Shown piece after piece: positions 23,357-49,513 of a stretch of 64,000 nucleotides of DNA. The DNA is taken from positions 3,075,361-3,139,360 of the forward strand of contig OY761558.1 of assembly GCA_963664725.1 (NCBI GenBank), read 5' to 3'. The notes under the pieces were generated by a model that was given only the letters and a program-made list of their open reading frames with translations, ran no database searches and was not told the origin of the DNA. The first letter of the stretch is position 1. Each line of letters starts with the position of its first letter. Made by a program: the position numbers and the translations under genes. This stretch comes from Dehalococcoidia bacterium (GTDB taxonomy: Bacteria; Chloroflexota; Dehalococcoidia; Lucifugimonadales; UBA3495).

Positions 23357-23966
23357 TGCGGCAAGTGCTAGCCTGGGTCAGCCAGCCTGACTAGAAAATG
23401 CCGGGGATCCGGCCCCGGCATGGTTGAGGTAAATAAAGGGTAGCTATCCGCGAGCAAAGTGCGGGCCGGGATTGGGCAGCAAGGAGAAAAATTTTGGGCC
23501 GTGGCTCTGTTACCAGGAAGCCACGGCCCAACTGATGCCTGGTTCGGGTGTCAGTCCGGCGGGGCGGGATGCTGAATCGCAGAATCACGGCCCTGCGGTC
23601 GGCCATGAGCCCTGGGCTCTTCCGTGTCAGGATCCCGGGAGAGCCCTGATTGTGCAGAAAACAGCGAGTCCGCGCTTATAGGAATCAGAGGAGGCCATGC
23701 TGACAGAAAATTTAGGGTACCTTAAATCCTATAACACTGTGCTGCCCGCCCGGCGATGAAACCCCGGTATCCCCGCAACTATTATCCTTCGCACTCGGTT
23801 TTCTCTTCGTTATCCCATACGGGAACGAGTCCCTATCTGCGGATACGCAAAGCCACAGAACATTCACGAAATCCCCCAATTCTGTAAGCTTGCCGAAATG
23901 CCGGACGGTGTATTATGTTCAATCATTAGTTCATTAAGAAGCTCTTCTCACGGAGGCCCTCACCCG

Positions 23967-26900: not shown

Positions 26901-27671
26901 CTGACCTACACCCTGGTGGGTCACGTGGCCTCGGTGACGGAGCGGTACACTCGGGAGCAGAAAAAGTTCCTGGTGGTCAACTTCGATCTGCTGGGCGGAC
27001 AGGTGGAAGCGCTGGTCTGGCCCGATGTGCTTGAACGGACGGCAGATATGTGGGTCACGGGCAGGCTGCTTAAAGCCACTGGTAAGTTGCGCCTCCGTGG
27101 TGATGGGTTTTCCCTGGCCTGTGAGCAGGTTTCGGCTTTCGTGCCCGTGGCTAATCCACCGGAAGAACCGCAGTCTGGCTTTCCACCCACGATCAGGGAA
27201 ACTCCGGCCCCTGCCGCCCCGAATGGCCAGTCAAACGGCGTCAAAGGCAACAGCCCTCCTAGTCCTCGCCGGAGCGGCGGAAACGGTAACGGCAACTACC
27301 GTCACCAACCTAATGGTTCCTATCGACCTCGTATCAACGGAAACGGCAATGGAGTCGGATACGGGGAAGAGACTACCGCTGTTTCTTTGCCCGCCTCCCG
27401 TGCGGTGTATGTGGGAATAACCGAATCCGAGGATCCGGTGGAAGATGCTCACCTGCTCAGAGAGGTTATTGCCCTGTTGCTGGAATACCCCGGCAAGGAC
27501 CGTGTCAACCTGGAAATTTACACCGATGGCCGCCGGGTTGTGCTGGACCTGCCGGTAGTGAGCACGGGCTATTGCGTCGAGATGCGGGATCGGCTGGAAG
27601 GACTGCTGGGCGCCAATTCGGTTGCGCTGCAAGGTGCAGATGAGGCGGGGTCAGACACGGTCCCCTTCTAA
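23967..27671 (+). CDS. dnaE: DNA polymerase III alpha subunit
   Basis: PHP domain start FTHLHTHTEYSMLDG, then the polymerase core, an OB fold and a C-terminal extension. The likely start is TTG 23967, which gives MFTHLH...; the longest ORF starts at ATG 23898. Confidence 0.95.
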   Translation: MFTHLHTHTEYSMLDGISRIPDLVYQVRDMGMESLAITDHGNLYGVVDFYSECKEAGIKPIIGCEVYVAHRSRHDRNASERSPYHLVLLAKNNTGYRNLMQLVTRGHLEGFHYRPRIDWELLQQYHEGLICMSGCASAEVPRLLADGRGEEARQKMLQYRELFGDGYFLELQRHEHVEQLPDINDGLTRLGRELEIPLVVTNDSHYVRQHEAPFQDLYICIQTNTTVQDEKRLRMEDNSYYVKSPAEMEHLFSDYPEALTNTQLIADMCHVELGFGQTHLPKFPTPNDMPADEYLAQLCWEGFRRRYPRATPEAEERLKYELEVIRHTQFANYFLVVWDICDFVHRNSIMFGVRGSAAASVALYCLGITDVDPLEYRLVFERFLNLERKEMPDIDMDFQDDRRDEVLHYVIDRYGSDRVAQIITFGTMGAKAALRDVGRSLGMSYGDVDRIARMVPFKTRTLDDALRVNPELTNTYEADNAVHNLVDNAKGLEGIVHHVSTHAAGVLIADEPLTETVPLQRPARGDENSPVLMTQYSMDPVAKLGLLKMDFLGLTNLTILDRATKLLDETQGIKIDVSRLPLDDKETFDLLSSGKTTDLFQLESAGMQRYIKELKPSNLGDIAAMIALYRPGPMEHIDTFIEAKHGRRGITYPHPSLQELLDETYGVIVYQDQVLLILQRFAGYTLGEADTVRKAMGKKIASLMAEERDRFIDGALGKGFDRPLATQVFDLIEPFAGYAFNKAHSVSYALISYWTAYFKAHYPLEYMCSVLNSRLDNTDRIVSSINECSKLQIPVLLPDINRSGEFFTIDKDSGTLPSLRFGLAAIKTVGEGAVKPLVAERLENGPFESIDDFCRRADVSGLNRRTLESLAKAGAFDSLGSRGAVLTALDQIMATAQLETRTRNSGQTSLFGGMEQTDAPQMAGVLLSGLDISAEEKAALEKELLGVSLSYNPLMALAGADVGDGINSIDQLDEDMQGLTYTLVGHVASVTERYTREQKKFLVVNFDLLGGQVEALVWPDVLERTADMWVTGRLLKATGKLRLRGDGFSLACEQVSAFVPVANPPEEPQSGFPPTIRETPAPAAPNGQSNGVKGNSPPSPRRSGGNGNGNYRHQPNGSYRPRINGNGNGVGYGEETTAVSLPASRAVYVGITESEDPVEDAHLLREVIALLLEYPGKDRVNLEIYTDGRRVVLDLPVVSTGYCVEMRDRLEGLLGANSVALQGADEAGSDTVPF

Positions 27672-28012: not shown

Positions 28013-29920
28013 ATGGCCGTTTTAGATGACATAAGAGCTCGCCTGGATATTACGGAAGTGGTTTCCGGCTATGTATCTCTGCAACGTTCTGGGCGGGCTT
28101 TCAAGGCTTGCTGCCCGTTTCACCAGGAGCGGACACCATCCTTCTACGTAAACCCGGAGCGGCAGTCCTGGCACTGTTTCGGCGCATGCGCCACAGGGGG
28201 CGATATTTTCGGCTTCATTATGAAGGCCGAAAACCTGGAATTCAAAGAGGCGCTGCAGCGGTTGGCACAGCAGGCGGGCGTAACCCTGCCCACCCGGGAA
28301 CGCCAGTCGGAACAGGATGACTTGTACCGCCTCAATGAGGCTGCTCGGGAATATTTCCAGCAATACCTGGCATCTTCCATTGGAGCCGGAGCGCGGGCTT
28401 ACCTGGAAGGTCGCGGGGTCAGCAGGGAGAGTGTTAGCAAGTTTGAACTTGGCCTCAGTCCGGTTGACGGACAGGGACTTTTTACCTATCTAATGAAGGC
28501 GGGCTTTGCGCCTGAGCAGATGGTCCGCGCCGGGGCGGTGTACCAACACCAGGACGGTGGACACAGGGATGCCTTTCGGGGCAGGCTGATTATTCCCATA
28601 CGTAACGGCCAGGGAGAATTGGGCGGGTTCGGCAGTCGGGCGCTGGACGATTCCATGCCCAAGTACCTGAATACGGGGCGCACACCGGTCTTTGACAAGG
28701 GCCGCACGCTTTACGCCCTCCACCTGGCGCGCGAGTCGGCTCGGAAGCAGGGTATGGTAATCGTGGAAGGCTATATGGACGCTATCTCGGCCCATCAGCA
28801 CGGGTACGAGAACGTAGTGGCCTCCATGGGGACAGCCCTTACCGATCACCAGGTGGCTGAAGTGCTCCGGATAACACGGCAGGTTACCCTGGCTCTGGAC
28901 TCCGATGCGGCGGGCCAGCAGGCTACCTTGCGTAGCCTGGAGTCCTCGTGGCAGGTGTTCCAGAATCGCCAGGTCTGGCAGGCAGGTGGTTCCACTTCGC
29001 CCCAGCGGCGTGAAGATTTGAACCTGCGGGTGGCGGTGCTGACTGACGGAAAGGACCCGGACGAGGTTATTCGTCAGGCGCCGGATAAGTGGGAAGAGTT
29101 GGTCCGAAACGGGGTGCCGTTGTTTGATTATCTTTTGCCGGCCCTTTCGGGGCAGATAGATACGGCTACACCAGAGGGCAAGGTTCGAATGGTGGAACGG
29201 GTAAGCCCGTTCATATATGCAGTGCAGGAGCCAATCCTGCAGGACAGTTATTTGCGCAAGCTGGCCGACTTTCTGTCGGTGAGGGAAGAGAGCTTACGTG
29301 CTACGTTGAACCGGCCCAATATGGGGCAGCGACCTGCTGGAGCGGGCAACGGCGCCAGGAGCGTCGGTCAGGGTGGAGAGAGTCGGTCAGCCAACCGAAC
29401 CGGTGTTGACCGGTCGGCATTGCTGGCAGAGGAACGGGATCCGCTGGACGAGCATTGCCTGGCGTTGCTGCTGCGGTACCCGGAACTGGCAGGCGAATTG
29501 CCTGAGTGCGGGGGTCTGCCGCCGGAATATTTCAGACGTCCAGAGAACCGGGAAATTTATTTGCAGATGACCTCTGCGTGGAGCCAGGCCCCGGAAATGC
29601 TGATTCCGGAAGATAATATGGCGGAACAGACCAGGCGTATTCTGACGCCCGAACTGTGGGACCAGCTGGACAGATTGGCATCTGTGAAATTGCCGCCTAT
29701 GGAACCGTGGGAGCGTCTGGAGGTTCTGCAGCAGATTCTAGGTCGCCTGGAAGAGCGGCAACTGAGAGAATTGAAACTGGCCGAGCAGGTACGTTTTTCC
29801 GATGACCCGTCGTCAATACCCGAAGAAGCGTCTGAAGAAACCCTAACCCTGAACAGGAAGATCAAGGCCAACGAGGAATCGAGAAAGCAATACTCCCAAA
29901 AAGTATCGCGTGGAAGGTGA
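28013..29920 (+). CDS. dnaG: DNA primase
   Basis: Zinc-binding domain [26 protein letters not shown], a Toprim domain ([11 protein letters not shown]) and a C-terminal helicase-interaction region. Confidence 0.95.
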   Translation: [635 protein letters not shown]

Positions 29921-29926
29921 CAGTAT

Positions 29927-31675
29927 ATGGTAAGACGCAACAAGACCAGCCAGGACATCGGCGCTGAAGAGGACCTGTACGACATCAACGACGAACCGTC
30001 GAGTAACGACAAGTACCTGGGCATTCTGGGCGCAGTGGCCAAGGAGGAAGATGACCTGGCAGAGGGAGGCGGAATGGCGGTAGCCACCATTCCCCTGGTG
30101 GTTGAATCCCCCGACGACCCCGACGACCAGGATGACCAATGGGTGCCGGGGCGGACTGCCGCCATCAGCCCTTCGGGCAGCCTGGATGAAGGCCCCGCCG
30201 ACACTGAAATAGAGGAAGAGGAAGAGGGCGAAGAACCAGATTGGGAGGCGGAAGCCGAAAGCCTGCAGGTGCTTGACGACCCGGTCCGGATGTACTTGCG
30301 AGAGATTGGTCGAGTCGGATTGCTGGCCGCCAAGGACGAACGGGAACTGGCGCGAAAGCTGGAGGGAGAGAAACACCTCCTGGCCCTGGGCAAAGAAGTT
30401 CTGGGCGAGGAGTACTGCCAGACGCTGGAACGGGAAGTCCTGGAAGAACGGCGTGGACCGGAGTACGGTTTCAAGGGGGAAAAGGTGGACCTGGGCCCTC
30501 TACGCAGTCCGGACCTGCTGAGCAAGAAAATACGGCTGGAGTTCAACGAAAGCGCCCGCAACTGGGAGCTTACTGAGGCCCTGCTGCGCCGCCTGGTGCG
30601 GGCCACCGCGCTGGTGGACGCATTGAGCGATTACCTTGAGTTGCCACGCAATCCAACCCTGTCCCAGTTGATTAATGAACCCGTTCTGGCGGACGCCATC
30701 GACGCCCAGGTGTCGGAGGAGATGCTGGTCAGCCTGGCGGAAACCCTGGAAATGGAACGGGACGATGTGTACCGACAGGTGGTGAACCTGTCCCTCGACC
30801 GCTGGATTCTCGCGCCGGATACGGTGGACGTGTTGCGGGACTGCACTTTGCTGCAACTGGACGCCACTTTCAGTGAGGTTGGGTCTATTCCGGAACTGGC
30901 AAGGTATGAACCCCTGTTCCGCAACAGATACAACCACATCAAGGCCGACGGCGACCGGGCCCAGGCCCATCTTACGGAGGCCAATCTCCGGTTGGTGGTC
31001 AGCGTGGCCAAGAAGTACATCGGCCGGGGCATGGCCCTGCTGGACATGATCCAGGAAGGGAACATTGGTCTGATCCGGGCGGTGGAAAAGTTTGACTATC
31101 GCAAGGGTTACAAGTTCAGCACCTACGCCACTTGGTGGATCCGCCAGGCCATTACCCGGGCCATTGCCGACCAGGCCCGCACCATCCGGATTCCGGTTCA
31201 CATGGTGGAAACTATCAACAAGCTGATGCGCCAGCACCGGCGACTGCTCCAGGAGTATGGCCGGGAACCTACACCCGAGGAAATCGGCGCGGCAATGGAA
31301 ATCGGGCCGGAAAAGGTTGAGGAGATCATGAAGATCTCTCAGGAACCGGTTTCACTTGAAACTCCCATTGGTGAGGAGGAAGACTCGCACCTGGGCGACT
31401 TCATTGAGGACCGTACCGCCCCCGCCCCCGCCGATGCCGCGTCCTTCCAGTTGCTAAAGGAGCAAGTGTCGGAAGTATTGGGCACCCTGACAGACCGGGA
31501 GAGCAGGGTGCTGCAACTGCGATTTGGCCTGGAAGACGGGCGCAGCCGTACCCTGGAGGAAGTGGGGAGAGAATTCGGGGTTACCAGGGAGCGAATCCGG
31601 CAGATTGAGGCCAAGGCCTTGCGGAAGTTGCGTCACCCCTCGCGCTCTCGGAAACTGAAAGACTTCCTCGAATAA
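29927..31675 (+). CDS. rpoD: Primary RNA polymerase sigma factor (sigma-70/SigA) with an acidic N-terminal extension
   Basis: Region 2 ([49 protein letters not shown]) and region 4 ([30 protein letters not shown]). Confidence 0.95.
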
Positions 31676-37603: not shown

Positions 37604-37809
37604 TGCAGTGGGCACCGCTAGGGTGCAGGTGATGTTGTGCGTCGGGGAACCCAACTTTGTTCCACGGGCGCCCGCCAGGCCCCTTTCCCTCAGCGCAAGC
37701 GAGTTAACCAACGGGGGTTCTACACAGACCAGAACTCCCGTTTGCTTTCAATCAACGCCTTTGCTACACTCTCGCCAAAGCTCCCATCCTCTGCTCTGGA
37801 AGGTTGCTC

Positions 37810-38607
37810 ATGGCCTCTGTATCCGTTGCCTGGACTGAAGAAACCCTGTCTGTGGCCGGCGTTGACCTGCACTTCAGAAAAGGTGGGTCGGGCGACCCCC
37901 TTCTAATTCTCCAGGACGAATTCGGTCATATGGGCCTGCTGCGCTACCAGGAAGAGCTGGCCCAGAGTAACACCGTCTATATTCCCTCACACCCCGGCTT
38001 TGGTCCCACACCCCGCCTGGACTGGATAATGAATGTTCGGGACCTGGCTGGCTGGTACCTGATGGCGCTGGACGAACTGGGGCTGCAGTCGGTTAACGCC
38101 ATTGGCCTGTCCATGGGCGGTTGGCTGGCTGCTGAGATGGCCACTATGGATCCCGGCCAGTTCAAGAAACTGGCGCTGGTGGGGGCCATGGGCGTGCTGC
38201 CCCCGGAAGGCTTTATTTTTGACATGTTTCTGTCGGTCCCGGCAATCTGCATTACAGCCTGCTTCCACGACCCCGAGGGGACGGCTGAGTTCCGGGAGAT
38301 TTGTCCCGAGATGGCGTCTCCCGAACAAGCCCAGGCCTGGGAAATCTCTCGTGAGGAGGCCTGTCGGCTGGGCTGGCGACCCTACATGTACTACCCGGGC
38401 CTGCCCAACCTGCTGGCTCGCCTGAAGGATTTGCCCACAATGATTGTGTGGGGCAGAGAGGACGAATTCGTTCCCATCAGCGCTGGCCAGGTTTATCACA
38501 GTTCCATCCCGGGGTCGCAGCTGGAGGTTCTGGACAACTGCGGCCACATGCCCCAAGTAGAAAAGACCGAGGAATTCCTAGGTCTGATCAGGCAGTTCTT
38601 CACCTAA
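37810..38607 (+). CDS. Alpha/beta-fold hydrolase
   Basis: Nucleophile elbow GLSMGG and a C-terminal His region (LDNCGHMPQVE). Confidence 0.85.
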   Translation: MASVSVAWTEETLSVAGVDLHFRKGGSGDPLLILQDEFGHMGLLRYQEELAQSNTVYIPSHPGFGPTPRLDWIMNVRDLAGWYLMALDELGLQSVNAIGLSMGGWLAAEMATMDPGQFKKLALVGAMGVLPPEGFIFDMFLSVPAICITACFHDPEGTAEFREICPEMASPEQAQAWEISREEACRLGWRPYMYYPGLPNLLARLKDLPTMIVWGREDEFVPISAGQVYHSSIPGSQLEVLDNCGHMPQVEKTEEFLGLIRQFFT

Positions 38608-38687: not shown

Positions 38688-39968
38688 ATGTTTATCGGGT
38701 ACTTCACCGAACGGCCCTATCAGGACCAGCGCTCTGGGTACTTTGGCGCGACCGGCAAGCCCATAATGGACCTGACGGTCAGCAACGAAATTTACGACGC
38801 CAAGCTGGGCGCCGAACTGTACAACCGCTATCTCGACGAAAAGATGTACGCCGAGGAAATGGGCTTCGACGGGCTGATGCTCAACGAGCATCACGGCACG
38901 CCCTTCTGTATGGGAGGCGCCATGAACGTGGAGGCCTCCATTCTGGCCCGTATGACCAACCGTGCCAAGATAGTCCTGCTGGGAAACATCCTGCCCATCT
39001 GGGATGACCCCCTTTGGCTGGTGGAACAGCTTTCCATGATCGACATGATTTCCCGAGGGCGGTTAGTATCCGGCTGGGTTCGGGGCACAGGCAGGGAAAG
39101 CGTGGCCCACAATTCGCCGCCGCCCTACAACTGGGAGCGGTTCCAGGAGGCCCACGAGTTTGTCGTCAAGGCCTGGACCACGCCCGGTCCCTTCCGCTGG
39201 GAGGGCAAGCATTTCCAGTACCGGCATGTTAACCCGTGGGTGCGGCCTTACCAGGAACCTCATCCGCCCATCTGGCTCCCCGGGGTGGTAAGCCGGGACT
39301 CGTTGATGTGGGCCGCCGAAAAGCGCATCCCCTACATTATGCTGGCCACGGAGATGGAACCGACCAAGCGAGCTTTTCAGCTATATCACGACACGGCCGC
39401 AGAACACGGCTATGAGTCTGGCCCACAAAACATCGGCTACCTCTGGAAGGTTCACGTTGACGAGACCGAGGAACTGGCGGAGGCAACGGCCCGCAAGTAT
39501 GTGCAAGGTCCCAGCAACCCATTCCTGGCCGGTAACGAGGGGACGGTCAACCCAGCGCTGGTGAACTTGCCGGGACTGACTTCCCGCACCCGTGTCCTTC
39601 CCACCCAGTCGGTGGCCACGGCGGCTCGGGGTGGCGGCGGCGGCGTAGCCGGAGTGTTGGGCCGAGCTTATGAACAGCAGATCGAAGACTACACCATAAT
39701 CGCCGGAACTCCGGATTCGGTGATTCCCAAGATTCGCCACGTCCTTGAGTACATCCGCCCTGGAAGTATCTTCTTCTGGGACGGCGACGGTGCGATGACT
39801 CACGACGACGCCATGCGCAGCCTGCGCCTTATGGGCCAGGAAGTTATACCCGCGGTGAAGGAAATCGCCAAGGAGCTGGAGCTTCCAGGTCCGTTCGAGG
39901 TGGATCCGGCCACGGGCAAAGACTTGACCCAAGAGGCTGAGGCGGCCAGTCCCACGGCGGATGATTAG
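38688..39968 (+). CDS. LLM-class flavin-dependent oxidoreductase
   Basis: GFDGLMLNEHHGTPF...LGNILPIWDDPLWLVEQLSMIDMISRGRLVSGWVRGTG. AGGAGG RBS precedes ATG 38688. Confidence 0.85.
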   Translation: MFIGYFTERPYQDQRSGYFGATGKPIMDLTVSNEIYDAKLGAELYNRYLDEKMYAEEMGFDGLMLNEHHGTPFCMGGAMNVEASILARMTNRAKIVLLGNILPIWDDPLWLVEQLSMIDMISRGRLVSGWVRGTGRESVAHNSPPPYNWERFQEAHEFVVKAWTTPGPFRWEGKHFQYRHVNPWVRPYQEPHPPIWLPGVVSRDSLMWAAEKRIPYIMLATEMEPTKRAFQLYHDTAAEHGYESGPQNIGYLWKVHVDETEELAEATARKYVQGPSNPFLAGNEGTVNPALVNLPGLTSRTRVLPTQSVATAARGGGGGVAGVLGRAYEQQIEDYTIIAGTPDSVIPKIRHVLEYIRPGSIFFWDGDGAMTHDDAMRSLRLMGQEVIPAVKEIAKELELPGPFEVDPATGKDLTQEAEAASPTADD

Positions 39969-40001
39969 GCCGGTTTCCTGAGGGCGCCTAGATTGGAGTA
40001 G

Positions 40002-40030
40002 GGGCGGGTCTTGTACCCGCCCTTTGCAGG
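40002..40030 (+). terminator. Intrinsic terminator after the LLM gene
   Basis: GGGCGGGT-CTTGT-ACCCGCCC followed by TTTGCAGGTTT. Confidence 0.55.
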
Positions 40031-40085: not shown

Positions 40086-41801
40086 ATGATCTCAGAACCG
40101 ACAACTGATGTGGCGGTCATCGGCGGCGGGCCCGCTGGCAGCGCCGCCGCCACAATGCTGGCGCGGCAGGGCTTGAAGGTAATGCTGCTGGAGCGGGAGC
40201 GCTTCCCCCGCGACCACGTCGGCGAATCGCTGCTACCGGCCAGCATTCCCATCCTGGAAGAATTGGGCGTTATGCCAGCGGTAGAAGCTCAGGGATTCGT
40301 CAAGAAGCTGGGCGCCACCATGGTATGGGGCCGCGACAGGGAGCCCTGGAGCTGGTTCTTCGGCGAGACCAATCGGCGGTATCCGCATTCCTACCAGGTC
40401 TGGCGGCCCACCTTCGACCACCTGCTGCTAGACAATGCCGCTGCCAACGGAGTTGACGTGCGCCAAGGCTGGCAGGCTACAGAAGTGTTGCTTGATCCCC
40501 AAGTCCGTTATTCCGGCGTAAGCAGTAATCCAGAACCCACCGACTTTCTACAGACTTCGAACGAAAGTTACTTGCACACCAGCGTCCGCTGTATGGACGA
40601 CGCAGGCCGGGAACGTCACATCCCATCTCGCTTTGTGGTGGACGCCAGTGGACAGAACGGGCTTTTGGGTCGTCAGCTTGGTCTGCGCCGGTGGGACGAA
40701 TCCTTCCGTAACCTTGCGGTCTATGCCTACTATGAAGGCGCCGAGCGATTGCCTCCCCCCGCTGACACCAACATCTTCATCGAATCTTACGCCCACGGGT
40801 GGCTGTGGACCATTCCCCTGCACACAGGTTGGGCCAGCGTGGGGGCTGTGGTAGACCAGCGTGTGGGCGAAGAAAGGGTTCAATCCATGGGCCTGGAACG
40901 CTTTCTTGACGAGCAGCTTTTTCAAGCCCCACACACGGCGGAAATGCTGCGAAACGCTAACAGGGTTTCGGGACCGTCCATCGTCAAGGACTGGTCTTAC
41001 GCCTGCGAGAAAATAGCTGGAAGTAGCTACGTATTGGCCGGGGATGCCGCCTGCTTCATTGACCCCCTATTTTCGTCGGGAGTGCACCTGGCCCTGATGT
41101 CCGGCGTGCTGGCCGCGGCGTACGTCACCACTGCCCTACGGGATCCGGCGATAGCTCCGGCCGCCGCCCAGGTCTACCAGGAACTGTATATGAAGGAATA
41201 CCACCACTTCCGGGAGATGGTGCGGCTCTTCTATTCCAGCAATCGTACGGTGGATTCCTACTTCTGGGAGGCGCGGCGCATCCTGGAAGAAGATGATGGA
41301 GAAGCGTCCGGCCTGTCTCCCCGGACGTCCTTCATACAGGCGGTGGCGGGGCAGCCACCACAGGGCTACGAGCGGATGGTGTTGGAGAGGGGCGCTGCGC
41401 CCACCCATTTCGCCGACAGTGTACGGGCAGTGGAGGATGAGCGGGTCAGGCGCCATGTACTGATCGAGGAATACCTCAAAGCCGGGAATGGGCAACCTCC
41501 TGCGATATTAGCCGCTGTGCCCAGGCTGCGGCCTGGAGTACGGGTGGTTCGGAAGCCGGTTGCCGGCGACGGCGCCTTTGAATGGGGCTATGTGCTCATC
41601 ACCGATGGCCATCCGGAGGGTCTGCCCTGTAGCGATCTGGTGGCCCGCCTGGCCACTATGCTGAATGGCAGGACAGCCGTCTCATCAATCCTCGACACTT
41701 TGGCAGCAGAAGTGGACCCATCTCTGCAGCAGCAACTCCTTGGCAGCGTGATATCCACGCTGCAGATTCTCTACGTGGACGGAACGATAGCTGAGTTGTA
41801 A
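40086..41801 (+). CDS. Flavin-dependent halogenase-family protein with a C-terminal PqqD-like extension
   Basis: FAD motif DVAVIGGGPAGSAAA. Halogenase signatures are W-x-W-x-I-P (HGWLWTIP) and F-x2-P-x2-S-x-G (FIDPLFSSG). The last ~95 aa (PRLRPGVRVV...MLNGRTAVSSILDTLAAEV...ILYVDGTIAEL) follow the PqqD/RRE pattern. Confidence 0.7.
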   Translation: MISEPTTDVAVIGGGPAGSAAATMLARQGLKVMLLERERFPRDHVGESLLPASIPILEELGVMPAVEAQGFVKKLGATMVWGRDREPWSWFFGETNRRYPHSYQVWRPTFDHLLLDNAAANGVDVRQGWQATEVLLDPQVRYSGVSSNPEPTDFLQTSNESYLHTSVRCMDDAGRERHIPSRFVVDASGQNGLLGRQLGLRRWDESFRNLAVYAYYEGAERLPPPADTNIFIESYAHGWLWTIPLHTGWASVGAVVDQRVGEERVQSMGLERFLDEQLFQAPHTAEMLRNANRVSGPSIVKDWSYACEKIAGSSYVLAGDAACFIDPLFSSGVHLALMSGVLAAAYVTTALRDPAIAPAAAQVYQELYMKEYHHFREMVRLFYSSNRTVDSYFWEARRILEEDDGEASGLSPRTSFIQAVAGQPPQGYERMVLERGAAPTHFADSVRAVEDERVRRHVLIEEYLKAGNGQPPAILAAVPRLRPGVRVVRKPVAGDGAFEWGYVLITDGHPEGLPCSDLVARLATMLNGRTAVSSILDTLAAEVDPSLQQQLLGSVISTLQILYVDGTIAEL

Positions 41802-41892: not shown

Positions 41893-43491
41893 ATGAACTT
41901 TGTTCTGCCTGAACGTATGAAATTCGGAATCTTCCTGGGGCCTTTCCACAGGGTTGGCGAGAATCCTACGCTGGCTATGGATCGGGACATGGAGTTGATC
42001 CAATGGCTTGACTACCTGGGATACGACGAAGCGTGGATTGGAGAGCACCACAGCGCCGGCTGGGAAACGATATCTTCGCCCGAACTGTTCATTGCCGCCG
42101 CCGCCGAGCGCACCAAGCACATAAAGCTGGGCACCGGAGTTATAAGCCTGCCTTACCACCATCCCTTTATGGTGGCCAACCGCATGGTCCAGCTGGACCA
42201 CATGACCCACGGACGGGTAATGCTGGGGGTTGGCCCGGGCGCGCTGCCGGGCGATGCCTACATGTTGGGCATTGACCCCACCACTCAGCGGGAAAAGATG
42301 GACGAGGCTATGGGCATCATCCTGCGCCTCTTCACCGAGGACGAGCCAATTACCTACAAGAGCGACTGGTTCGAGCTTCGGGAAGCCATGCTGCAACTGA
42401 AGCCTTACCAACGGCCCTACATGCCGTTGTCTGTGGCATCGGTGCAGTCCCCTGCGGGGGTTGCCATGGCCGGCAAATATGGAGCGTCGGTACTGACAAT
42501 CACCGTACCCCGCGACCCTTCTGCCGGTCCCTCCAACCTCAAGGCTCTTTGGGAGATTGCGGAGACCTCTGCCGCCGAGCATGGGCAGACGGTGGACCGG
42601 CATGAGTGGCGGCTGGCCGTCCCCTGCCACCTTGCCGAAGACCGTGAACAGGCCTTGCAGGAAGTGAAGATGGGGGCGGGCAGATACTTACGGGAATACT
42701 CGGAAGGCACCAATGGCCGGAAGGCCGCCTTCGACGGGCCCCTGGAAGATGTTGCGGAGTTCATGCGGGACAACGGTTCCTGGATTATCGGCACCCCCGA
42801 TGACTGTATCGAAAGCCTGAACCGGCTGGCAGAACAAAGCGGCGGTTACGGCGGTTTCCTGGTCCAAACTATTGACTGGGCGCCTCGCGAGAAGATGCTG
42901 CACAGCTTCGAGTTGATGGCCCGCTATGTGATGCCACACTTCCAGGGCTCGGTTCGGAGCGTCGCCGCGTCCAACCGCTGGGCCGCGGAACGGCAGGAAC
43001 TCCTGGTTGGCGGGCGGGTGCGGGCCATAGACCGGGCCCACCAGGTCTACGCAGATCGGCAAGGTTCGGGCTCTCAGCAGAATGGTTCCAGCCATAACGG
43101 ATCGGGCCAGGAGAGCGCCGCCGAGGCTAAAGAAGAAGTTCCAAGACCGCCGGTCCCTGGCAATAATGGGGTTAGCACGGACCAGGTCCGCCGAGCGGCC
43201 GGGATTACGCCTGAAGGAGAGTTCGAGCTTCCCATCCTTGAAGTATTGTTCAACCTGGGCGGCAGTGGCTCCACCGACGACGTGTTGAAAGGAGTTGATG
43301 CCCTGATTGGCGGCTATTTCAAGGAAGGGGACTTCCATTCCTCCGAAAACGGCGGTGTAACCTGGCAGCAATCTGCGAAAGCAGCCCGACAGACATTGGT
43401 GACCTTTGGACTGGTAAAGGTAAACAGTGACGGCGACGCCTGGGAGTTGACCGAAGAAGGCAAGCGGGAGGCAGCCAAGGCCAAGATCTAA
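41893..43491 (+). CDS. LLM-class flavin-dependent oxidoreductase fused to a C-terminal Mrr_N-like winged-helix domain
   Basis: LLM core (GYDEAWIGEHHSAGWE...GRVMLGVGPG), a G/S/N-rich linker, then ELPILEVLFNLGGSGSTDDVLKGV...VTWQQSAKAARQTLVTFGLVKVNSDGDAWELTEEGK. Confidence 0.8.
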   Translation: MNFVLPERMKFGIFLGPFHRVGENPTLAMDRDMELIQWLDYLGYDEAWIGEHHSAGWETISSPELFIAAAAERTKHIKLGTGVISLPYHHPFMVANRMVQLDHMTHGRVMLGVGPGALPGDAYMLGIDPTTQREKMDEAMGIILRLFTEDEPITYKSDWFELREAMLQLKPYQRPYMPLSVASVQSPAGVAMAGKYGASVLTITVPRDPSAGPSNLKALWEIAETSAAEHGQTVDRHEWRLAVPCHLAEDREQALQEVKMGAGRYLREYSEGTNGRKAAFDGPLEDVAEFMRDNGSWIIGTPDDCIESLNRLAEQSGGYGGFLVQTIDWAPREKMLHSFELMARYVMPHFQGSVRSVAASNRWAAERQELLVGGRVRAIDRAHQVYADRQGSGSQQNGSSHNGSGQESAAEAKEEVPRPPVPGNNGVSTDQVRRAAGITPEGEFELPILEVLFNLGGSGSTDDVLKGVDALIGGYFKEGDFHSSENGGVTWQQSAKAARQTLVTFGLVKVNSDGDAWELTEEGKREAAKAKI

Positions 43492-43597: not shown

Positions 43598-44554
43598 TTA
43601 CAATCCCTGTCCCACCGTGGCAATGAGGTTCAGGTTTCGTTCTATGGAGGCCTGTGCGTTGCCGCCGGCGGTCAGCGGGTGGGCCAGGACTTCGGTGGCT
43701 CCCCAGTCGAACAATTCCCGAAGGCGACCGGCCACCGTCTCCTCGTCACCCATCAGCACCACATCATCTATCATGCCATCGCTCCACGCTCCCTCCCGCG
43801 CTTCGGGGTGGCCGGACGCGGCGAACATCTCCTGGTAAAAAGGGGAGCGGGGGTAATTGGCAAGCTGGGCCCGAGCCGCTTCCCGCACTTCGTCCGGGTT
43901 GTCGTGAACGCACACCGGGGCGTGGGCCACCAGGGGAGGCGTCTCCCGACCGGCTCTCGTCGCACCCCGCTGCATCTCCGGTAGGGCCACGTCGCGCAGG
44001 TATTGGCCGGGGCACACCCAGCTTATGGCGCCGTCGGCCACCTCGCCGCACAGGCGGAAGGAGCGGCGGCGCAGGGCCGATGCCATTACCGGCACGTCTG
44101 GAGATGTCGGCCCTGGCAGGGAGGCGTGGCCGTGGTACTGGGAGCCATCATAGTCCACCTGGCCCTCCCACAGCAGGGCTTTAACCAGTTCTATGTACTC
44201 CCGCAGGTTGGTCAGCGGCGCTTCGTGCTCAATTCCGAACATGGGCTCGATGCTGACCTTGTGGCTGGGTCCCAGGCCCAGCCGGAACCGGCCCGGGGCC
44301 AACTGGGCTACAACCTGGGTCTGGGCCACGGACACGATGGGGTGGCGTGGGTATGTGGGTATGATGCTGGTGCCCAGCAGGATGCGGTCGGTGGTGGCCG
44401 CTGCTGCCGCGAAGGTTGTAAGGGCGTCTGGCCCCGCCCCGCCGGAAGTCAACCACGCCGCTTGTATGCCCCGGGCCTCCAGGTCCTGGATGCGGGCCAC
44501 CACGGTGGGAACGTCTCCCCCCATGGCCGCCACGCCTATTCGCTTTTCTGCCAT
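43598..44554 (-). CDS. LLM-class oxidoreductase, probably F420-dependent
   Basis: GIQAAWLTSGG...LLGTSIIPTYPRHPIVSVAQTQVVAQLAPGRFRLGLGPSH resembles the F420-dependent LLM subfamilies. Confidence 0.8.
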   Translation of the reverse strand: MAEKRIGVAAMGGDVPTVVARIQDLEARGIQAAWLTSGGAGPDALTTFAAAAATTDRILLGTSIIPTYPRHPIVSVAQTQVVAQLAPGRFRLGLGPSHKVSIEPMFGIEHEAPLTNLREYIELVKALLWEGQVDYDGSQYHGHASLPGPTSPDVPVMASALRRRSFRLCGEVADGAISWVCPGQYLRDVALPEMQRGATRAGRETPPLVAHAPVCVHDNPDEVREAARAQLANYPRSPFYQEMFAASGHPEAREGAWSDGMIDDVVLMGDEETVAGRLRELFDWGATEVLAHPLTAGGNAQASIERNLNLIATVGQGL

Positions 44555-44691: not shown

Positions 44692-44730
44692 GGTTCCGTT
44701 CTAAATTGGGGTATGGAGATTTAGAGGGCC
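44692..44730. repeat. Left terminal inverted repeat GGTTCCGTTCTAAATTGGGGTATGGAGATTTAGAGGGCC
   Basis: Read directly from the sequence. It pairs with 49514-49552. Confidence 0.9.
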
Positions 44731-44785
44731 TATAGACGGCCCCCTGCTTTCCTTGCGGAAGGGGATATGCTAGTCTGACCCTGTC

Positions 44786-44959
44786 ATGAATTTAAGCGTT
44801 GCTGACCTGTGTGCCTGGCTCTTCCCTGTATTCTTGGGCACAACGCTGTTATCCCTTATTGGGTGGATGAAGCGTCCTTGGTGGGCATTGGCGGCGTCGA
44901 TTCTAGTAGCCGGTTTTTTTGGAGTTTTGTATATATTCCAACAGTGGCCACCAAGTTAA
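44786..44959 (+). CDS. Hypothetical 57-aa two-helix membrane peptide (passenger ORF, not in the ORF track)
   Basis: Hand translation gives MNLSVADLCAWLFPVFLGTTLLSLIGWMKRPWWALAASILVAGFFGVLYIFQQWPPS. It is preferred over the overlapping 44809..45024 track ORF. Confidence 0.3.
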   Translation: MNLSVADLCAWLFPVFLGTTLLSLIGWMKRPWWALAASILVAGFFGVLYIFQQWPPS

Positions 44960-45098
44960 CGCAAATCAGAAATCCTAGCAAAAAAAAGAATTCCCACTAC
45001 TCCATCAAGTGTCATTGTTACTGACCTCCTAAAATCTTCCCCTGTACTTGAGTCACTACCGTGCGTTGGGGCGTGTAAGAGCTTTGAGAGTTAAATTA

Positions 45099-45524
45099 AT
45101 GAAGTGGGGCCGACCTGCAATTAGAAACCTCTTGTATGTTCACTATCTTACATCTGGTTTATTGGCCCTGATGGCTTTCATTGCTGCATTCATGGAAGAA
45201 CCCACTGCGGAGGACCCTACCGCCAAAGCAGGCTTTTATGGTGGCTTAATCGTATTTTGCGTTACCAGTATAGCAATTCTGGAGGGGCTGAAGTCATCTA
45301 GCTCCATAGGTGAGAAGTGTAGGGTCATTGGTGTAAGAATTGGACTCCTAGCGGGTGCGTACTTATTGATCGCCGCCGCTGCTGGCGTTGCTCCATCTGA
45401 CTTGAACTTTCTTGCAGGTTTCACAGTAGTCTGGCTTTTGTCTGCCGTAGTTGTGCTTATACTTTTTGCATTTGTGCTCTGGAGTCACTGGAAAGCCCCA
45501 AAATCTGATGCTGACGGAAACTAA
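45099..45524 (+). CDS. Hypothetical multi-pass membrane protein (passenger)
   Basis: About four hydrophobic helices. AT-rich. The start at ATG 45099 (MKWGRP...) is more plausible than TTG 45048. Confidence 0.45.
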   Translation: MKWGRPAIRNLLYVHYLTSGLLALMAFIAAFMEEPTAEDPTAKAGFYGGLIVFCVTSIAILEGLKSSSSIGEKCRVIGVRIGLLAGAYLLIAAAAGVAPSDLNFLAGFTVVWLLSAVVVLILFAFVLWSHWKAPKSDADGN

Positions 45525-45536
45525 ACAGGATTTACG

Positions 45537-46034
45537 ATGGTTCGCCTATTCGTCTTGTTAGCGATTACGACAGTTGCCTTGTTGAGTTGTAGTTCAGCGG
45601 CTTCAGGGACAAGTCCTACTTCCATGGAGACCTGCAAGGACTGTGTTACGGCAGAGACTAATGAGCTTCGTATCGAGAACTGTGATGATTGCATTACCGC
45701 AGGGGAAATAATGAGGGCGTATGAGACTCCCGCCGTGAGAGAAAAACATCCCTACGATGGTAATCGATACAAAGTGGTCGGAACTATTACAGGCATTCAA
45801 AGGGGTATGGGGGTTTGCCCGTGTCCCGACACTTTTTGGATTAAGTCGGGCGGCGAGAAGGCAACCATCATTTTCCCTGACACCAATTTTGATAACGATG
45901 AGATTCTGGCTCCTTATGGGCGGGGTGACACAATTATCGCAAATTGTTTGGTGGAAGGTATCTTCGGATATACCGCGCTAGGCATCGGCATAAAAGATGG
46001 TAGACCTGCTTTCGCGGATTGCAAGATACCCTGA
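45537..46034 (+). CDS. Putative lipoprotein with an OB-fold (tRNA_anti-like) C-terminal part (passenger)
   Basis: Signal peptide plus lipobox (ALLSCSS). The C-terminal pattern YDGNRYKVVGTITGIQ...ATIIFPD...GDTIIANCLVEG...DCKI resembles OB-fold lipoproteins. Confidence 0.5.
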   Translation: MVRLFVLLAITTVALLSCSSAASGTSPTSMETCKDCVTAETNELRIENCDDCITAGEIMRAYETPAVREKHPYDGNRYKVVGTITGIQRGMGVCPCPDTFWIKSGGEKATIIFPDTNFDNDEILAPYGRGDTIIANCLVEGIFGYTALGIGIKDGRPAFADCKIP

Positions 46035-46164
46035 TAGTAAATCGAACTCTACTGTAGTCACCTAATCAACGGAAGATCCGACCACGAAGTCTGTCACCCC
46101 ATTTCCGCTCTCGTCATCCCCGCCCAGCTTGCCTTCCCGGAAGGGCCGGGATAGAATGAATCTG

Positions 46165-46458
46165 TTATGGTTCCAGCACCTCCCATAGAACTGTTTTATG
46201 CCGTCGCACTTCTGCAATCTCTTGCGATGATTGCCATAGTAATAACAGTAGAAAGAGAACGCCGACGAATACGGCGATACCTCCGACAATGGCACAGTTG
46301 CAGCCAATGCGATTTGCCTTATCTTCTTTGCCCTGTTCCTCCCCATCCCTACGGGGCATATACACCCACACAAGCCCCCCAGCAACCGCCATCACCATCC
46401 CAATCACAATCAACCATTGGGCAATAGCCCCAAGGGACTCCCAAAAGGATTCGACCAT
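46165..46458 (-). CDS. Hypothetical two-helix membrane protein downstream of the transposase (passenger)
   Basis: MVESFWESLGAIAQWLIVIGMVMAVAGGLVWVY...IVGGIAVFVGVLFLLLLLW. It starts 21 nt after the transposase stop. The longer track ORF would overlap the transposase gene. Confidence 0.4.
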   Translation of the reverse strand: MVESFWESLGAIAQWLIVIGMVMAVAGGLVWVYMPRRDGEEQGKEDKANRIGCNCAIVGGIAVFVGVLFLLLLLWQSSQEIAEVRRHKTVLWEVLEP

Positions 46459-46478
46459 AGTATGGGTTGGCCTCTGAC

Positions 46479-47555
46479 CTAGAGCCTTCCCCTGATTTCT
46501 CGCTTCTTGAGCCACGCCGGATTGCGGTTCTTCTTCCGCTTCGGCAGTTTCGGCGGTTCCTGCGCCAGTGTGCGTTTGGGCCTCCCCATTTCGCAAGCGG
46601 CCAGCCGTTCAGTCTTTGCCGGTTCTACCATCCCCACCACCCTGACCGGCTTGTTGGCGGTGGGGTGGATTCGTGGCTTCGGTACTTCCTTTGCTTCCGC
46701 GACCGCTGCACCTTCCTTCACCACGTCCGCCCATTCCCCATAGGGACTCTTGACCTTGGCAGCCTCCGCCGGGGTGCGGTCATTTATGCTTTCGTGTTCC
46801 CGAAAGAGATTGTAGGTCAGTGTCCACCTGTCCAGGTAACGCTGTCCTGACTCCAGACTGTCCAGCCCCCGCAGGGTTTTGATTCGCTGGCGGTACGTCC
46901 CCTGCAGGCGTTTCGACAGGTTGTTGTTGACCTCCGCTCGCATGCCGTCGCTCTGGACGTGCTTCGTGTTGGGAAAGACCAGACTAACGGCGGCGGGATA
47001 GCTGGCGAGGCGGTCGGTCTTGATGGTCTTGGGGTGTTCGGTGGCCGCGGCTTCGGCCCTCTCCATCACGGTTTCGGCGGCCTTCATATTCCGCTGTTTG
47101 GACAGGTGAGAGGCCAGAATGTAGCGGGTCTTGGCGTCCATCACGTTCCATAGCCACATCTTTTCCCCGCCCACCTGAACCTGCAATTCGTCCGCCACCC
47201 ATTCGGGTCCGGTGGTGGCCCGATACTGCAGGTCCCGCATAGTGGCGCTGGCCTTGTCGGTGTAGTCGCAAACCCAATAGTAGATGATGGACTTGGAGGG
47301 TTCGGGAATATCGAAGGCGTCCGCCATCGCCTCGCCAATCTGTTTGTAGGACATTCCGCTGTAGAACAACCGCACGGCCATACCGATCTGCTCTGCCGGA
47401 ACCTGTCGGCCCTCTGGTGTCCCATCGGCCCGGAATTTCTTTTCACATCCCCGGCAGAGGTAGCGTTGATAGCCGTTGCGCCGTCCGATTTTGACAACCT
47501 GGGCGGAATCACATTCAGGGCAACGGACGCTGTAGGTGGTGGTGAACTCGGCCAT
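46479..47555 (-). CDS. Transposase with an N-terminal zinc ribbon and a DDE domain, IS6/IS1595-like
   Basis: CPECDSAQVVKIGRRNGYQRYLCRGCEKKF zinc ribbon, then ADELQVQVGGEKMWLWNVMDAKTRYILASHLSKQRNMKAA...IKTDRLASYPAA...NNNLSKRLQGTYRQRIKTLRG, which resembles IS6-type DDE transposases. Confidence 0.8.
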   Translation of the reverse strand: MAEFTTTYSVRCPECDSAQVVKIGRRNGYQRYLCRGCEKKFRADGTPEGRQVPAEQIGMAVRLFYSGMSYKQIGEAMADAFDIPEPSKSIIYYWVCDYTDKASATMRDLQYRATTGPEWVADELQVQVGGEKMWLWNVMDAKTRYILASHLSKQRNMKAAETVMERAEAAATEHPKTIKTDRLASYPAAVSLVFPNTKHVQSDGMRAEVNNNLSKRLQGTYRQRIKTLRGLDSLESGQRYLDRWTLTYNLFREHESINDRTPAEAAKVKSPYGEWADVVKEGAAVAEAKEVPKPRIHPTANKPVRVVGMVEPAKTERLAACEMGRPKRTLAQEPPKLPKRKKNRNPAWLKKREIRGRL

Positions 47556-47826
47556 TATACCCCCGGTAGAAATGCAGGATGAGGGGTTGTTCCCGGTTGC
47601 CCGGGAGACTGCTATCATTCTAGCAGAGTCCGATGTGCGTTATGACAAGCCCTATCGGACAAGGGGAGTGCAGTAGAGGGCACATAGGTCTGCCAAGACC
47701 GGCTTGGCAATCCCCTGAAAAGGGGAAACCCCGGCGCGCAAACACCGGGGCACGCATTTCCAGCGGTTAGGGGCCGCTGAATCAGCTGATACCCGGATTA
47801 TGACCGGGGTTCGCTTAAGATGTCAA

Positions 47827-47867
47827 CTGCCCCGCCGCTCAAAATTGAACGGCGGGGCAGTTTGTGT
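47827..47867 (+). terminator. Strong hairpin inside the transposon, immediately before ORF 47888
   Basis: CTGCCCCGCCG-12 nt-CGGCGGGGCAG followed by TTTGTGT. No obvious upstream + strand gene exists for it to terminate. Confidence 0.4.
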
Positions 47868-47887
47868 CCCGCCCTCTGAGGTACATA

Positions 47888-48274
47888 ATGAGTGATTTAA
47901 TAGCAAAAGTCCTTGAGTTCCTGGAGGACGTGGCCAGCGATATGGGCGGGGGACAGGGCAACTACCTTTTGGGAAGCGTCCTTCGCACCTGCCTCGCTAC
48001 CACTTGGGGTCAGGCCACATTGGGGATTCTACGCCGACAGACCTATCCATTGGGGCGTTGGGCCGTCAACTCTCCCGCCGTAGAGAAGTTGGCGGTCGTC
48101 TTTGGGATATGTTTCTTGGCAACTGCTGGCCACGAAATCCTGACGGGGATACCGACTCCCATCGGTATGCAGCTTGCCCTTGTGGGGGTCATAGTCTATA
48201 TGATCCTTGTGAGCCTCTACCGTACAGGTAAAACCCTGTGCTGGGTCAAATGGCGTCAGCGCCGTAACACCTAA
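47888..48274 (+). CDS. Hypothetical membrane protein (passenger)
   Basis: GAGGT RBS precedes ATG 47888. C-terminal hydrophobic helices (LAVVFGICFLATAG..., MQLALVGVIVYMILVSL). Confidence 0.4.
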   Translation: MSDLIAKVLEFLEDVASDMGGGQGNYLLGSVLRTCLATTWGQATLGILRRQTYPLGRWAVNSPAVEKLAVVFGICFLATAGHEILTGIPTPIGMQLALVGVIVYMILVSLYRTGKTLCWVKWRQRRNT

Positions 48275-48311
48275 CTCGAAGGGGGGCGCAATCCCCCCTT
48301 CGGCACTTCCA

Positions 48312-48701
48312 TCACTTCCGCCGAATCAATTCATACAGGCCCCGCAGGGTGAGCAGTCCTCCCACACCAATCGCTCCCAAGACGACCATTATCAGCCGCC
48401 GGGGATTATTCCATACATCCAGTGGGTCTCTCCAAAGATAAGACGCCGCCATGAGTACCGTCCCCGCGATGAGCAAACCCAAGCCGCAATAGAGAGTGAC
48501 CAACGAACCAGCCTTTCGCTCTCTTTTGAATTCTTCCTGCTGTTCTGCCACCAGTTGCGGATTATCCCGCCTCACATCAGCAATGAGTCTTTCAGCTTGG
48601 CCGGGGTCGTACCCGCTGATGACTAGTTCGTTGCGAATTTCATGGTCAGACTTGCCATCCCGGAATAGGTCGAGGATGTAGCCGGTAGGGTCGGATGTCA
48701 T
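48312..48701 (-). CDS. Hypothetical protein with a soluble N-domain and two C-terminal TM helices (passenger)
   Basis: GGAGG RBS precedes ATG 48701. Sequence: MTSDPTGYILDLFRDGKSDHEIRNELVISGYDPGQAERLIADV... followed by two hydrophobic helices. Confidence 0.45.
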   Translation of the reverse strand: MTSDPTGYILDLFRDGKSDHEIRNELVISGYDPGQAERLIADVRRDNPQLVAEQQEEFKRERKAGSLVTLYCGLGLLIAGTVLMAASYLWRDPLDVWNNPRRLIMVVLGAIGVGGLLTLRGLYELIRRK

Positions 48702-48767
48702 AAAGGAACCTCCGTGAAATTGGGCATTGGGGGGCAAACGCACTTGCCCCCCCTTTGGGCTATGGGT

Positions 48768-49136
48768 TCAGAGCGGCAGTATTCGGGTGAAGAACGTCAC
48801 CAAAGGCCTAAGGATTAGGGAATTGGACGGGTAGTTCAGAACGTCAACGTAAACGTACAGACAGGCCCGGAGCGTCACCACCGAAACCACAGCAAAAACA
48901 ATCAGCCGGAAGGAGCGGTGCAGCCAATTGACCGCACCAAATACTCCAACAAGAATCCCTCCCGCCGTGAAGAGAATCCCAAGGGCGGCGGGAAGCAAGA
49001 ATACAAAGGTGATTCTCTGGCCGAAGATAAACCACAAGGCGAGTGAGACGCCCGTAGTTCCGACCAGAATGGCAATGCCGATGAAGAACAACCCCATACC
49101 GGGGTCGTCTGCAGATTGACGTGCAGGCGTACTCAT
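48768..49136 (-). CDS. Hypothetical four-helix membrane protein (passenger)
   Basis: GGGAGA RBS. Consecutive hydrophobic segments run through the 122 aa. Confidence 0.45.
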   Translation of the reverse strand: MSTPARQSADDPGMGLFFIGIAILVGTTGVSLALWFIFGQRITFVFLLPAALGILFTAGGILVGVFGAVNWLHRSFRLIVFAVVSVVTLRACLYVYVDVLNYPSNSLILRPLVTFFTRILPL

Positions 49137-49513
49137 TCCATATCTCCCAAGGCGTATTCGTGTGACCGACTTCGTAGCCGTACCAGGGCACGACTAATGA
49201 GCTAAATGGTCAGGCGAATAGACAAGGGATGGGGAACAGGGAATAGCGCACAGGGGCGGAATGGAACTGGGGAAAAGCGAGGTAGAGGACGGCTGTGGCC
49301 TTGGCTGTAACCAACGTAAGAAAGGCAGGGTGAAAACGCATACAGGAACCCCCACGCAGGAAAGGAATGTTGGCACCTGCGACAGCAACCGACAAACCCC
49401 AATGGGCCACGTGGGGGCACGAAGCCCCAACGTTCCATTACTGTTAAGACCCCTTGGAGAAAGGTGTTGCTGTCGCAGACCGTAGTATGCGTAAATGATG
49501 TTATATTGTCAAA

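Follow-up and report, generated by a model that had tools for sequence, protein, structure and literature searches.

A widespread halogenase-family flavoprotein of Dehalococcoidia with a conserved C-terminal domain remotely similar to PqqD

Whether a flavin-dependent halogenase (FDH) could carry its own domain for recognizing a ribosomal peptide is the question raised by one gene in a 64,000-nucleotide stretch of Dehalococcoidia DNA (contig OY761558.1 of GenBank assembly GCA_963664725.1, positions 3,075,361 to 3,139,360; hereafter the window, whose own numbering is used throughout). FDHs are valued biocatalysts. A sequence-only reading of the window had described the product of this gene as a halogenase-family enzyme ending in a domain like PqqD and the recognition element (RRE) of ribosomally synthesized and posttranslationally modified peptides (RiPPs), and had taken the combination to imply halogenation of a ribosomal peptide or a carrier-bound substrate. 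In the analysis reported here, the protein was placed in the FDH family with all of its signature motifs conserved, and its C-terminal domain was found to be predicted as a separate fold with remote similarity to PqqD. Its conserved neighbors are a luciferase-like monooxygenase (LLM) and an α/β hydrolase, and the most likely substrate of the resulting cassette is a small organic compound, not the precursor of a RiPP.

The open reading frame (ORF) begins with an ATG at 40086 and ends with a stop codon at 41799–41801, giving 571 amino acids in the ORF listing; a TTG at 40011, which would lengthen the ORF, was rejected as the start because the homologues begin at the ATG. The product matched Pfam Trp_halogenase (PF04820) with 140.7 bits (E 8.4e-41), above the curated threshold of 21. 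Sequence searches of solved structures returned FasV (8ZOP), CndH (3E1T), and CmlS (3I3L) with E-values of 1e-73 to 1e-76, followed by the pyrrole and phenol halogenases PltA, Mpy16, ChlB4, and RadH near 1e-50, and tryptophan halogenases reached only 1e-5 to 1e-9. The distance by which FasV, CndH, and CmlS lead the tryptophan halogenases assigns the enzyme, by E-value, to the "variant B" branch of phenol, pyrrole, and enol halogenases (CmlS/CndH/FasV). By sequence, CndH and FasV came out on top (E 3e-73 and 3e-76, respectively, at 35–36% identity); they share with the window protein the catalytic Lys (K76 in CndH) and both halogenase signatures and work in polyketide or nonribosomal peptide synthetase (NRPS)-type pathways. 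Their alignments end at query residue ~404, and neither enzyme was matched by the C-terminal-domain profile. The structural comparison used an AlphaFold2 model built on a 47-sequence alignment (mean predicted local distance difference test score [pLDDT] 79.6, predicted TM-score 0.80). The top Foldseek matches to the full model were all FDHs, and CmlS was the best over the full length (E 1.5e-34, 571 aligned columns, TM 0.65–0.68). CmlS and the window protein have a length of ~570 residues and the segments VKK, GESLLP, DWSY, and FxDPLFSxG in common, but they are only ~29% identical, and CmlS belongs to an antibiotic (chloramphenicol) biosynthetic cluster, whereas the window gene lies with genes for an LLM and a hydrolase. 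The domain that follows the catalytic domain of CmlS has reportedly been described as a winged helix; it had no sequence similarity to the C-terminal domain of the family and was weakly similar in structure (Foldseek E 0.4, probability 0.35). The NCBIfam CmlS model (NF033113) gave 301.3 bits over residues 7–406 (model positions 3–382 of 570), and orthology to CmlS was rejected in view of its equivalog cutoff of 900.

Motif conservation was assessed in an alignment of 47 homologues (61–96% identity). The segments named in the sequence-only reading were all recovered: the GxGxxG motif for FAD (GGGPAG, from residue 13), WxWxIP (GWLWTIP, from residue 238), and FxxPxxSxG (FIDPLFSSG, from residue 324) were invariant at the positions given in Table 1, as was K74 within KKLGATMVW (from residue 73). 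In the printed alignments, K74 pairs with K76 of CndH and with the second Lys of the VKK segment of CmlS, YVKKPSATFLWG, and so takes the place of the catalytic Lys numbered K79 in PrnA, K76 in CndH, and K71 in CmlS. The lysine whose absence would have spoken for an ordinary FAD monooxygenase is present, and the earlier assignment to the FDH family stands on the Pfam match (E 8.4e-41) and the complete set of signatures. The segment G46-E47-S48-L49-L50-P51 was likewise invariant, and Glu47 presumably has the catalytic role ascribed to its counterpart in CmlS. By analogy, the Asp of the invariant DWSY segment is a candidate counterpart of the Asp to which FAD is covalently attached in CmlS. A low-complexity insertion at residues ~139–162 differs widely in length between homologues and is missing from many of them.

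The claim that the last ~95 residues form a PqqD/RRE-like domain was borne out in part. These residues are conserved and are predicted to be a separately folding domain with β3α3 topology: the AlphaFold2 model places strands at residues 486–493, 498–505, and 513–515, followed by helices at 517–525, 532–541, and 545–565, with a pLDDT of ~90 for residues 480–571 in the full model and of 92.6, with the same topology, when the domain was modeled alone. The segment PRLRPGVRVV at residue 479 follows the PqqD-like pattern. On the single window protein, Pfam PqqD (PF05402) scored 12.9 bits (E 0.15) against a gathering score of 23.4; with no significant PqqD match, the Pfam check that the sequence-only reading had named as a refutation formally goes against it for the single sequence. 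NCBIfam gave no match for the C-terminal 95 residues. Across the family, PqqD was the commonest Pfam match (19 of 30 members at E <1, best E 0.0016), always under threshold. Other recurrent weak matches were to NGO1945_C (14 of 30) and to a PKMT winged-helix domain (5 of 30), the latter being annotated on many genuine PqqD proteins as well. In a profile–profile comparison with hhalign, an alignment of the domain family (A2) matched a PqqD alignment with 92.1% probability (score 41.0, 64 columns), in a register that runs from P-x-L-x-x-G-V-R through DG-x-T-x-V-x-x-I/L to the end of helix 2. As null comparisons, 200 column shuffles of the PqqD alignment scored 11.1 ± 2.2 (maximum 22.0); reversing that alignment gave 13.1. 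The comparison was pairwise and against PqqD sensu stricto only, with 12 sequences in the PqqD alignment (Xanthomonas and Lysobacter orthologues and the Methylobacterium extorquens sequence from the PDB); the probability exceeds the 90% taken as the profile-similarity threshold in the exploratory mode of RRE-Finder.

In a Foldseek search of the PDB with the isolated domain model, no match reached E ≤1e-3, and neither PqqD nor an RRE was among the top 50; Foldseek performs poorly and unreliably on a fold this short (PMC12710340). The top matches were the carbamoyltransferases GdmN and NovN (E 0.012–0.05), whose relevance is not established. A HMMER profile of the domain, searched against 1.84 billion representative proteins, found no canonical PqqD among 125 matches; those inspected were, with few exceptions, pieces from the C-terminal end of this same halogenase family, and they revealed no new architectures. 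Against the PDB, the profile matched only residues 357–386 of QhpG (7CTQ, E 0.34) and EF-2 (E 0.82), neither being significant alone. Relative to PqqD and the RREs, the domain has the predicted topology and a profile match in register, and it differs in its sub-threshold single-sequence scores, in the absence of a solved RRE from the Foldseek matches, and in having no precursor or RiPP enzyme nearby. From these comparisons it was concluded that the domain belongs remotely to the PqqD superfamily or is structurally close to it, which can be detected only at the profile–profile level. Some unusual relatives of the domain were also seen. Two are stand-alone proteins of 113 residues in non-RiPP contexts, one of them among thiolase/ChsH2, short-chain dehydrogenase/reductase, PNPOx, and TetR genes; one family member has an SEC-C metal-binding motif appended after the domain; and a 260-residue ORF joins the N terminus of an LLM to the C terminus of the halogenase, perhaps through deletion or misassembly (identifiers P0364, P0245, P0350, and P0357; locus L090, 3511–3852).

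The domain is not peculiar to the window. A protein database search gave thousands of halogenase-family matches, the best 120 of which were full-length at 59–96% identity; the few of these 120 that carry a source name come from Chloroflexota or Dehalococcoidia metagenome-assembled genomes (MAGs). The closest match (96% identity) lies on a 4.38-Mb contig, L001, with an identical gene order. In a collection holding one genome per species, at least 571 stretches encode a relative and at least 80 species are represented; synteny was counted in the best 80 of these stretches, one per species. Nearly all of the 80 are Dehalococcoidia, including SAR202, Tepidiformaceae, and sponge symbionts, the exceptions being four Pseudomonadales MAGs and one MAG each from Entotheonella, Acidimicrobiaceae, and unclassified Proteobacteria. 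Family members derive mostly from soil, ocean (SAR202), and sponge Dehalococcoidia. Among all ORFs of these loci, only family members carry the C-terminal domain (72 of the 73), a distribution that points to a domain ancestral to the family rather than recently fused. The notion of a novel fusion in the sequence-only reading has to be given up on this count, and also because the halogenase fold with a C-terminal winged helix is known from QhpG (PMC7876137).

QhpG is a halogenase-fold monooxygenase that acts as a peptidyl-tryptophan dihydroxylase; its closest structure is CmlS, and its winged-helix domain sits above a catalytic domain of halogenase-like fold, the substrate pocket lying between them (PMC7876137). 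The winged-helix domain of QhpG contained the top PDB match of the C-terminal-domain profile, and QhpG reached a probability of 0.94 (E 0.046) in the isolated-domain Foldseek search. An hhalign comparison with A2, using genuine orthologues from plasmid-borne qhp/pea clusters (loci L086, L088, and L089), gave 71% over the β1–β3 segment only (31 columns, V-R-V-x-R-x-P-V-x-x-D-G...V-x-I-T). The same winged-helix profile showed no similarity to PqqD by hhalign, and there is therefore no transitive link. In its catalytic domain, QhpG lacks WxWxIP (GWAWMAR instead), FxxPxxSxG (AVDPLSGNG instead), and DWSY, and its orthologues lack the Lys and the KK..GAT..WG motif, in a segment that aligns poorly. 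True QhpG genes sit in the qhp/pea cluster, whose genes (QhpC and the radical S-adenosylmethionine [SAM] enzyme QhpD) are absent here. Identity with QhpG (NF049967) was rejected, with 195.6 bits against a cutoff of 240 and no peaA, peaB, qhpC, or peaD in the window. Given the precedent of QhpG, and the reported one of CmlS, the architecture of a halogenase fold with a C-terminal winged helix is itself already known; what is distinctive here is that all halogenase signatures are kept together with a recognizably PqqD-like domain sequence. The "winged-helix" domain of QhpG may itself belong or be related to the RRE/PqqD superfamily. A QhpG-like protein annotated as "tryptophan 7-halogenase" is encoded on plasmid pAZKH of Azoarcus sp. 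KH32C (locus L087, 4918–6252) without a qhp/pea cluster and next to SRPBCC, DUF5602, and PrpF genes, which hints at QhpG-type enzymes with other substrates.

In the window, genes for the α/β hydrolase, an LLM, the halogenase, and a second LLM follow one another in the same direction, separated by 38, 117, and 91 bp, and a terminator scan found no terminator-like site between the four. An orthologue of the upstream LLM lies within 6 kb in 48 of the 80 loci; in 44 it is the immediately preceding gene and has the strand of the halogenase, and the hydrolase accompanies it in 35, including the Pseudomonadales MAGs. Clustering of all ORFs of the loci revealed no other widely conserved neighbor. The upstream LLM is more conserved across species than the halogenase (mean identity 75% vs. 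54%), and this holds along its entire length; its tail has a semi-conserved LxLPxxFEVDPxTG followed by a variable acidic stretch. It matched no characterized LLM subfamily above threshold, and its true start is probably near MFIGYF at 38688. In the Pseudomonadales MAGs, it is still 66% identical. DnaE, DnaG, and RpoD are encoded 8–16 kb upstream, and the cassette is therefore chromosomal, in no obvious mobile or biosynthetic island; GlmU is a further housekeeping protein encoded nearby. The wider neighborhood has a catabolic look, with genes for an amidase, a cupin, an F420-type LLM, an SGL lactonase-like protein, a DinB/MDMPI protein, and an M19 dipeptidase.

This context does not favor the ribosomal peptide implied by the sequence-only reading: the conserved neighbors are an LLM and a hydrolase, with neither a conserved small ORF nor RiPP genes. 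That reading had already seen no precursor ORF in the adjacent gaps, and a search for ORFs of 18–110 codons within 5 kb at 73 loci agreed, finding none common to more than four. No radical SAM, YcaO, lanthipeptide, NRPS, or polyketide synthase gene was seen in the surroundings of the gene or in the family loci. The sequence-only reading, a halogenase that tailors RiPPs in the canonical way through a fused RRE and whose precursor and maturation genes lie elsewhere in the genome, would account for the β3α3 topology and the 92% hhalign probability to PqqD, and MibH, SrpI, MppI, and ChlH, the only FDHs listed as acting on peptide Trp, demonstrate that ribosomal peptides can be FDH substrates (bioRxiv 10.1101/2025.09.03.674030). 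Such an enzyme is nonetheless very improbable here, with no RiPP gene or conserved small ORF in more than 80 loci from different species, a synteny that is consistently with the LLM and the hydrolase, and a catalytic domain of the phenol/pyrrole type where the known peptide FDHs are of the Trp-halogenase type.

In lodAB and goxAB, the gene of the modified protein comes first and is followed by that of the flavoprotein acting on it. By the logic of QhpG, LodB, and GoxB, the family could comprise peptide- or protein-directed halogenases or hydroxylases in which the PqqD-like domain binds a ribosomal substrate and Trp or Tyr is modified; possible substrates would be a peptide encoded elsewhere and the upstream LLM protein. 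We consider this rather unlikely. It is consistent with the PqqD-type topology and profile similarity of the C-terminal domain, with the nature of two of its three recurrent weak Pfam matches (PqqD and NGO1945_C, both peptide-partner domains), with its likeness to the winged-helix domain of QhpG (Foldseek 0.94, hhalign 71%), and with a tight pairing with the LLM, evident in the mean identity of 75% and the FEVDPxTG tail. The NCBIfam QhpG, LodB, and GoxB models also matched (196, 130, and 91 bits), but all three under their own cutoffs and under the CmlS score. Further, the similarity to QhpG is confined to 31 columns, the LLM is not nearby in 32 of the 80 loci, no conserved small ORF or RiPP maturation gene lies close by, and the rare stand-alone relatives of the domain occur in non-RiPP contexts. 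The claim that this would be the first FDH with a built-in RRE-type domain, halogenating Tyr or Trp of a ribosomal peptide or protein and possibly the upstream LLM or its tail, is one we hold to be unlikely.

The enzyme might also not halogenate in vivo. Halogenase-fold monooxygenases exist, QhpG being an example (PMC7876137), and one that hydroxylates an aromatic or enolizable degradative intermediate together with the LLM and the hydrolase would suit both the catabolic-looking surroundings (amidase, cupin, PcaD/HsaD/BphD-type hydrolase, and several LLMs) and the wide occurrence of the family among Dehalococcoidia, SAR202 included. Strict invariance of the Lys, WxWxIP, FxxPxxSxG, and GESLLP in the family, features that QhpG has lost, argues against such a monooxygenase, which we hold to be unlikely.

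As to the chemistry, the substrate, and what the C-terminal domain does, we infer instead a FADH2-dependent halogenase of the CmlS/CndH type that acts on a small organic substrate within a hydrolase–LLM–halogenase cassette, with the PqqD-like domain as an integral lid or recruitment module, and we give this reading about an even chance. By homology, the enzyme would be the halogenating part of a two-component system in which reduced FAD from an unlinked flavin reductase, O2, and halide yield hypohalous acid; this would be captured by Lys74, with Glu47 nearby, and passed to an electron-rich carbon of the substrate. By analogy with the winged-helix domain of QhpG and the one reported for CmlS, the C-terminal domain would be seated on the catalytic domain, either forming the substrate pocket or controlling access to it, or else serving as a docking site for a bulky partner. 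The cassette of α/β hydrolase, LLM, and halogenase is distributed across Dehalococcoidia, SAR202 and Tepidiformaceae among them, and is occasionally present in other phyla. Several points weigh against a small-molecule halogenase. The closest characterized enzymes are only ~29–36% identical; 32 of the 80 loci have no LLM within 6 kb; and no gene for a flavin reductase, which may be unlinked, turned up within ~10 kb in the window or in the set of conserved neighbors. Domains of the PqqD type normally bind peptides and fit a small-molecule substrate poorly, and we know of no precedent for a halogenase whose gene is part of an LLM/hydrolase cassette with a catabolic look.

Literature searches combining halogenase with SAR202, RRE, or PqqD-like found no description of this halogenase family or of an FDH–PqqD/RRE fusion, and in recent papers on MibH, SrpI, MppI, and ChlH, no recognition domain of their own was found described. 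The gene belongs to a large uncharacterized family that has kept every halogenase signature and has an ancestral PqqD-like domain. Should recruitment of a peptide or protein prove to be the role of the domain, it would be a new portable substrate-targeting module for halogenation, and abundant Dehalococcoidia, including SAR202, would possess a widespread system for halogenating proteins or peptides; if the domain only caps the pocket, the cassette would still point to unknown organohalogen or oxidative chemistry in bacteria with an important part in dissolved organic matter turnover.

Table 1. Positions of the halogenase-family gene, its domains and motifs, and neighboring genes in the window
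Feature	Position	Strand	Basis or remark
Halogenase-family flavoprotein gene	40086..41801	+	ORF list; Pfam PF04820, 140.7 bits; full-length homologues, 59–96% identity
Catalytic FAD-binding/halogenase domain, residues 1–404	40086..41297	+	FasV/CndH/CmlS alignments; Foldseek
GxGxxG dinucleotide-binding motif GGGPAG, residues 13–18	40122..40139	+	G13, G14, G15, P16, and G18 invariant
Glu47 in invariant GESLLP segment	40224..40226	+	Pairs with Glu of CmlS VGESLLPG
Lys74, candidate chloramine-forming catalytic lysine	40305..40307	+	Alignments to CndH and CmlS
Variable low-complexity insertion, residues ~139–162	40500..40571	+	pLDDT <50 for residues 141–162
WxWxIP signature GWLWTIP, residues 238–244	40797..40817	+	W239, W241, I243, and P244 invariant
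DWSY, residues 302–305	40989..41000	+	D302-W303-S304-Y305 invariant; pairs with CmlS DWSY
FxxPxxSxG signature FIDPLFSSG, residues 324–332	41055..41081	+	F324–G332 invariant
Helical linker, residues 405–476	41298..41513	+	Partly low confidence; conserved FIQAVAGQPPxGYERxVLxxG
Predicted PqqD-like winged-helix domain, residues 477–571	41514..41798	+	AlphaFold2; hhalign; sub-threshold Pfam
α/β-fold hydrolase, enol-lactonase/C–C hydrolase-like	37804..38607	+	Pfam Abhydrolase_1/6; weak NCBIfam PcaD, HsaD, BphD
Upstream LLM, 440 residues	38646..39968	+	Pfam Bac_luciferase, 2.5e-30
Downstream LLM-class oxidoreductase with C-terminal extension	41893..43491	+	Syntenic only in close relatives
F420-type LLM oxidoreductase, TIGR03564-like	43598..44554	-	Syntenic only in close relatives
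Core replication/transcription genes	DnaE 23898–27671; DnaG 28013–29920; RpoD 29927–31675		8–16 kb upstream

Some minor features of the locus were recorded as well. The 117-bp gap between the upstream LLM and the halogenase contains an 8-bp G+C-rich inverted repeat at 40001–40023 (GGGCGGGT cttg TACCCGCC) followed by TTTGCAGGTTT; the terminator scan was silent there, and the repeat might act in attenuation or as a hairpin for mRNA processing. In three Dehalococcoidia/Chloroflexota MAGs, of marine or other origin, a conserved protein of ~70 residues beginning MCRSIKTLRR, which presumably resembles DUF2277, is encoded 6–27 bp downstream of the halogenase gene (L012, 3769–3981; L014, 4749–4961; L021, 4346–4585); it is absent from the window. 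The extension of the second LLM (43030–43488, + strand, C-terminal ~150 residues) gave a weak, sub-threshold Pfam match to the winged-helix family Mrr_N (E 0.0048). Its orthologue in the relative L002 has only 389 residues and is followed by a separate 177-residue ORF, which suggests a fusion or a split.

Relative to L001, the 96%-identical locus in which an SGL-family gene directly follows the F420-type LLM, the window contains ~4.8 kb of extra DNA between these two genes (~44700–49500). The extra segment holds two ORFs without a family match (45048–45524 and 45537–46034) and an insertion sequence transposase (46479–47618, - strand; DDE_Tnp_IS240 and InsA), and the G+C content falls to 0.53 at 44–46 kb.

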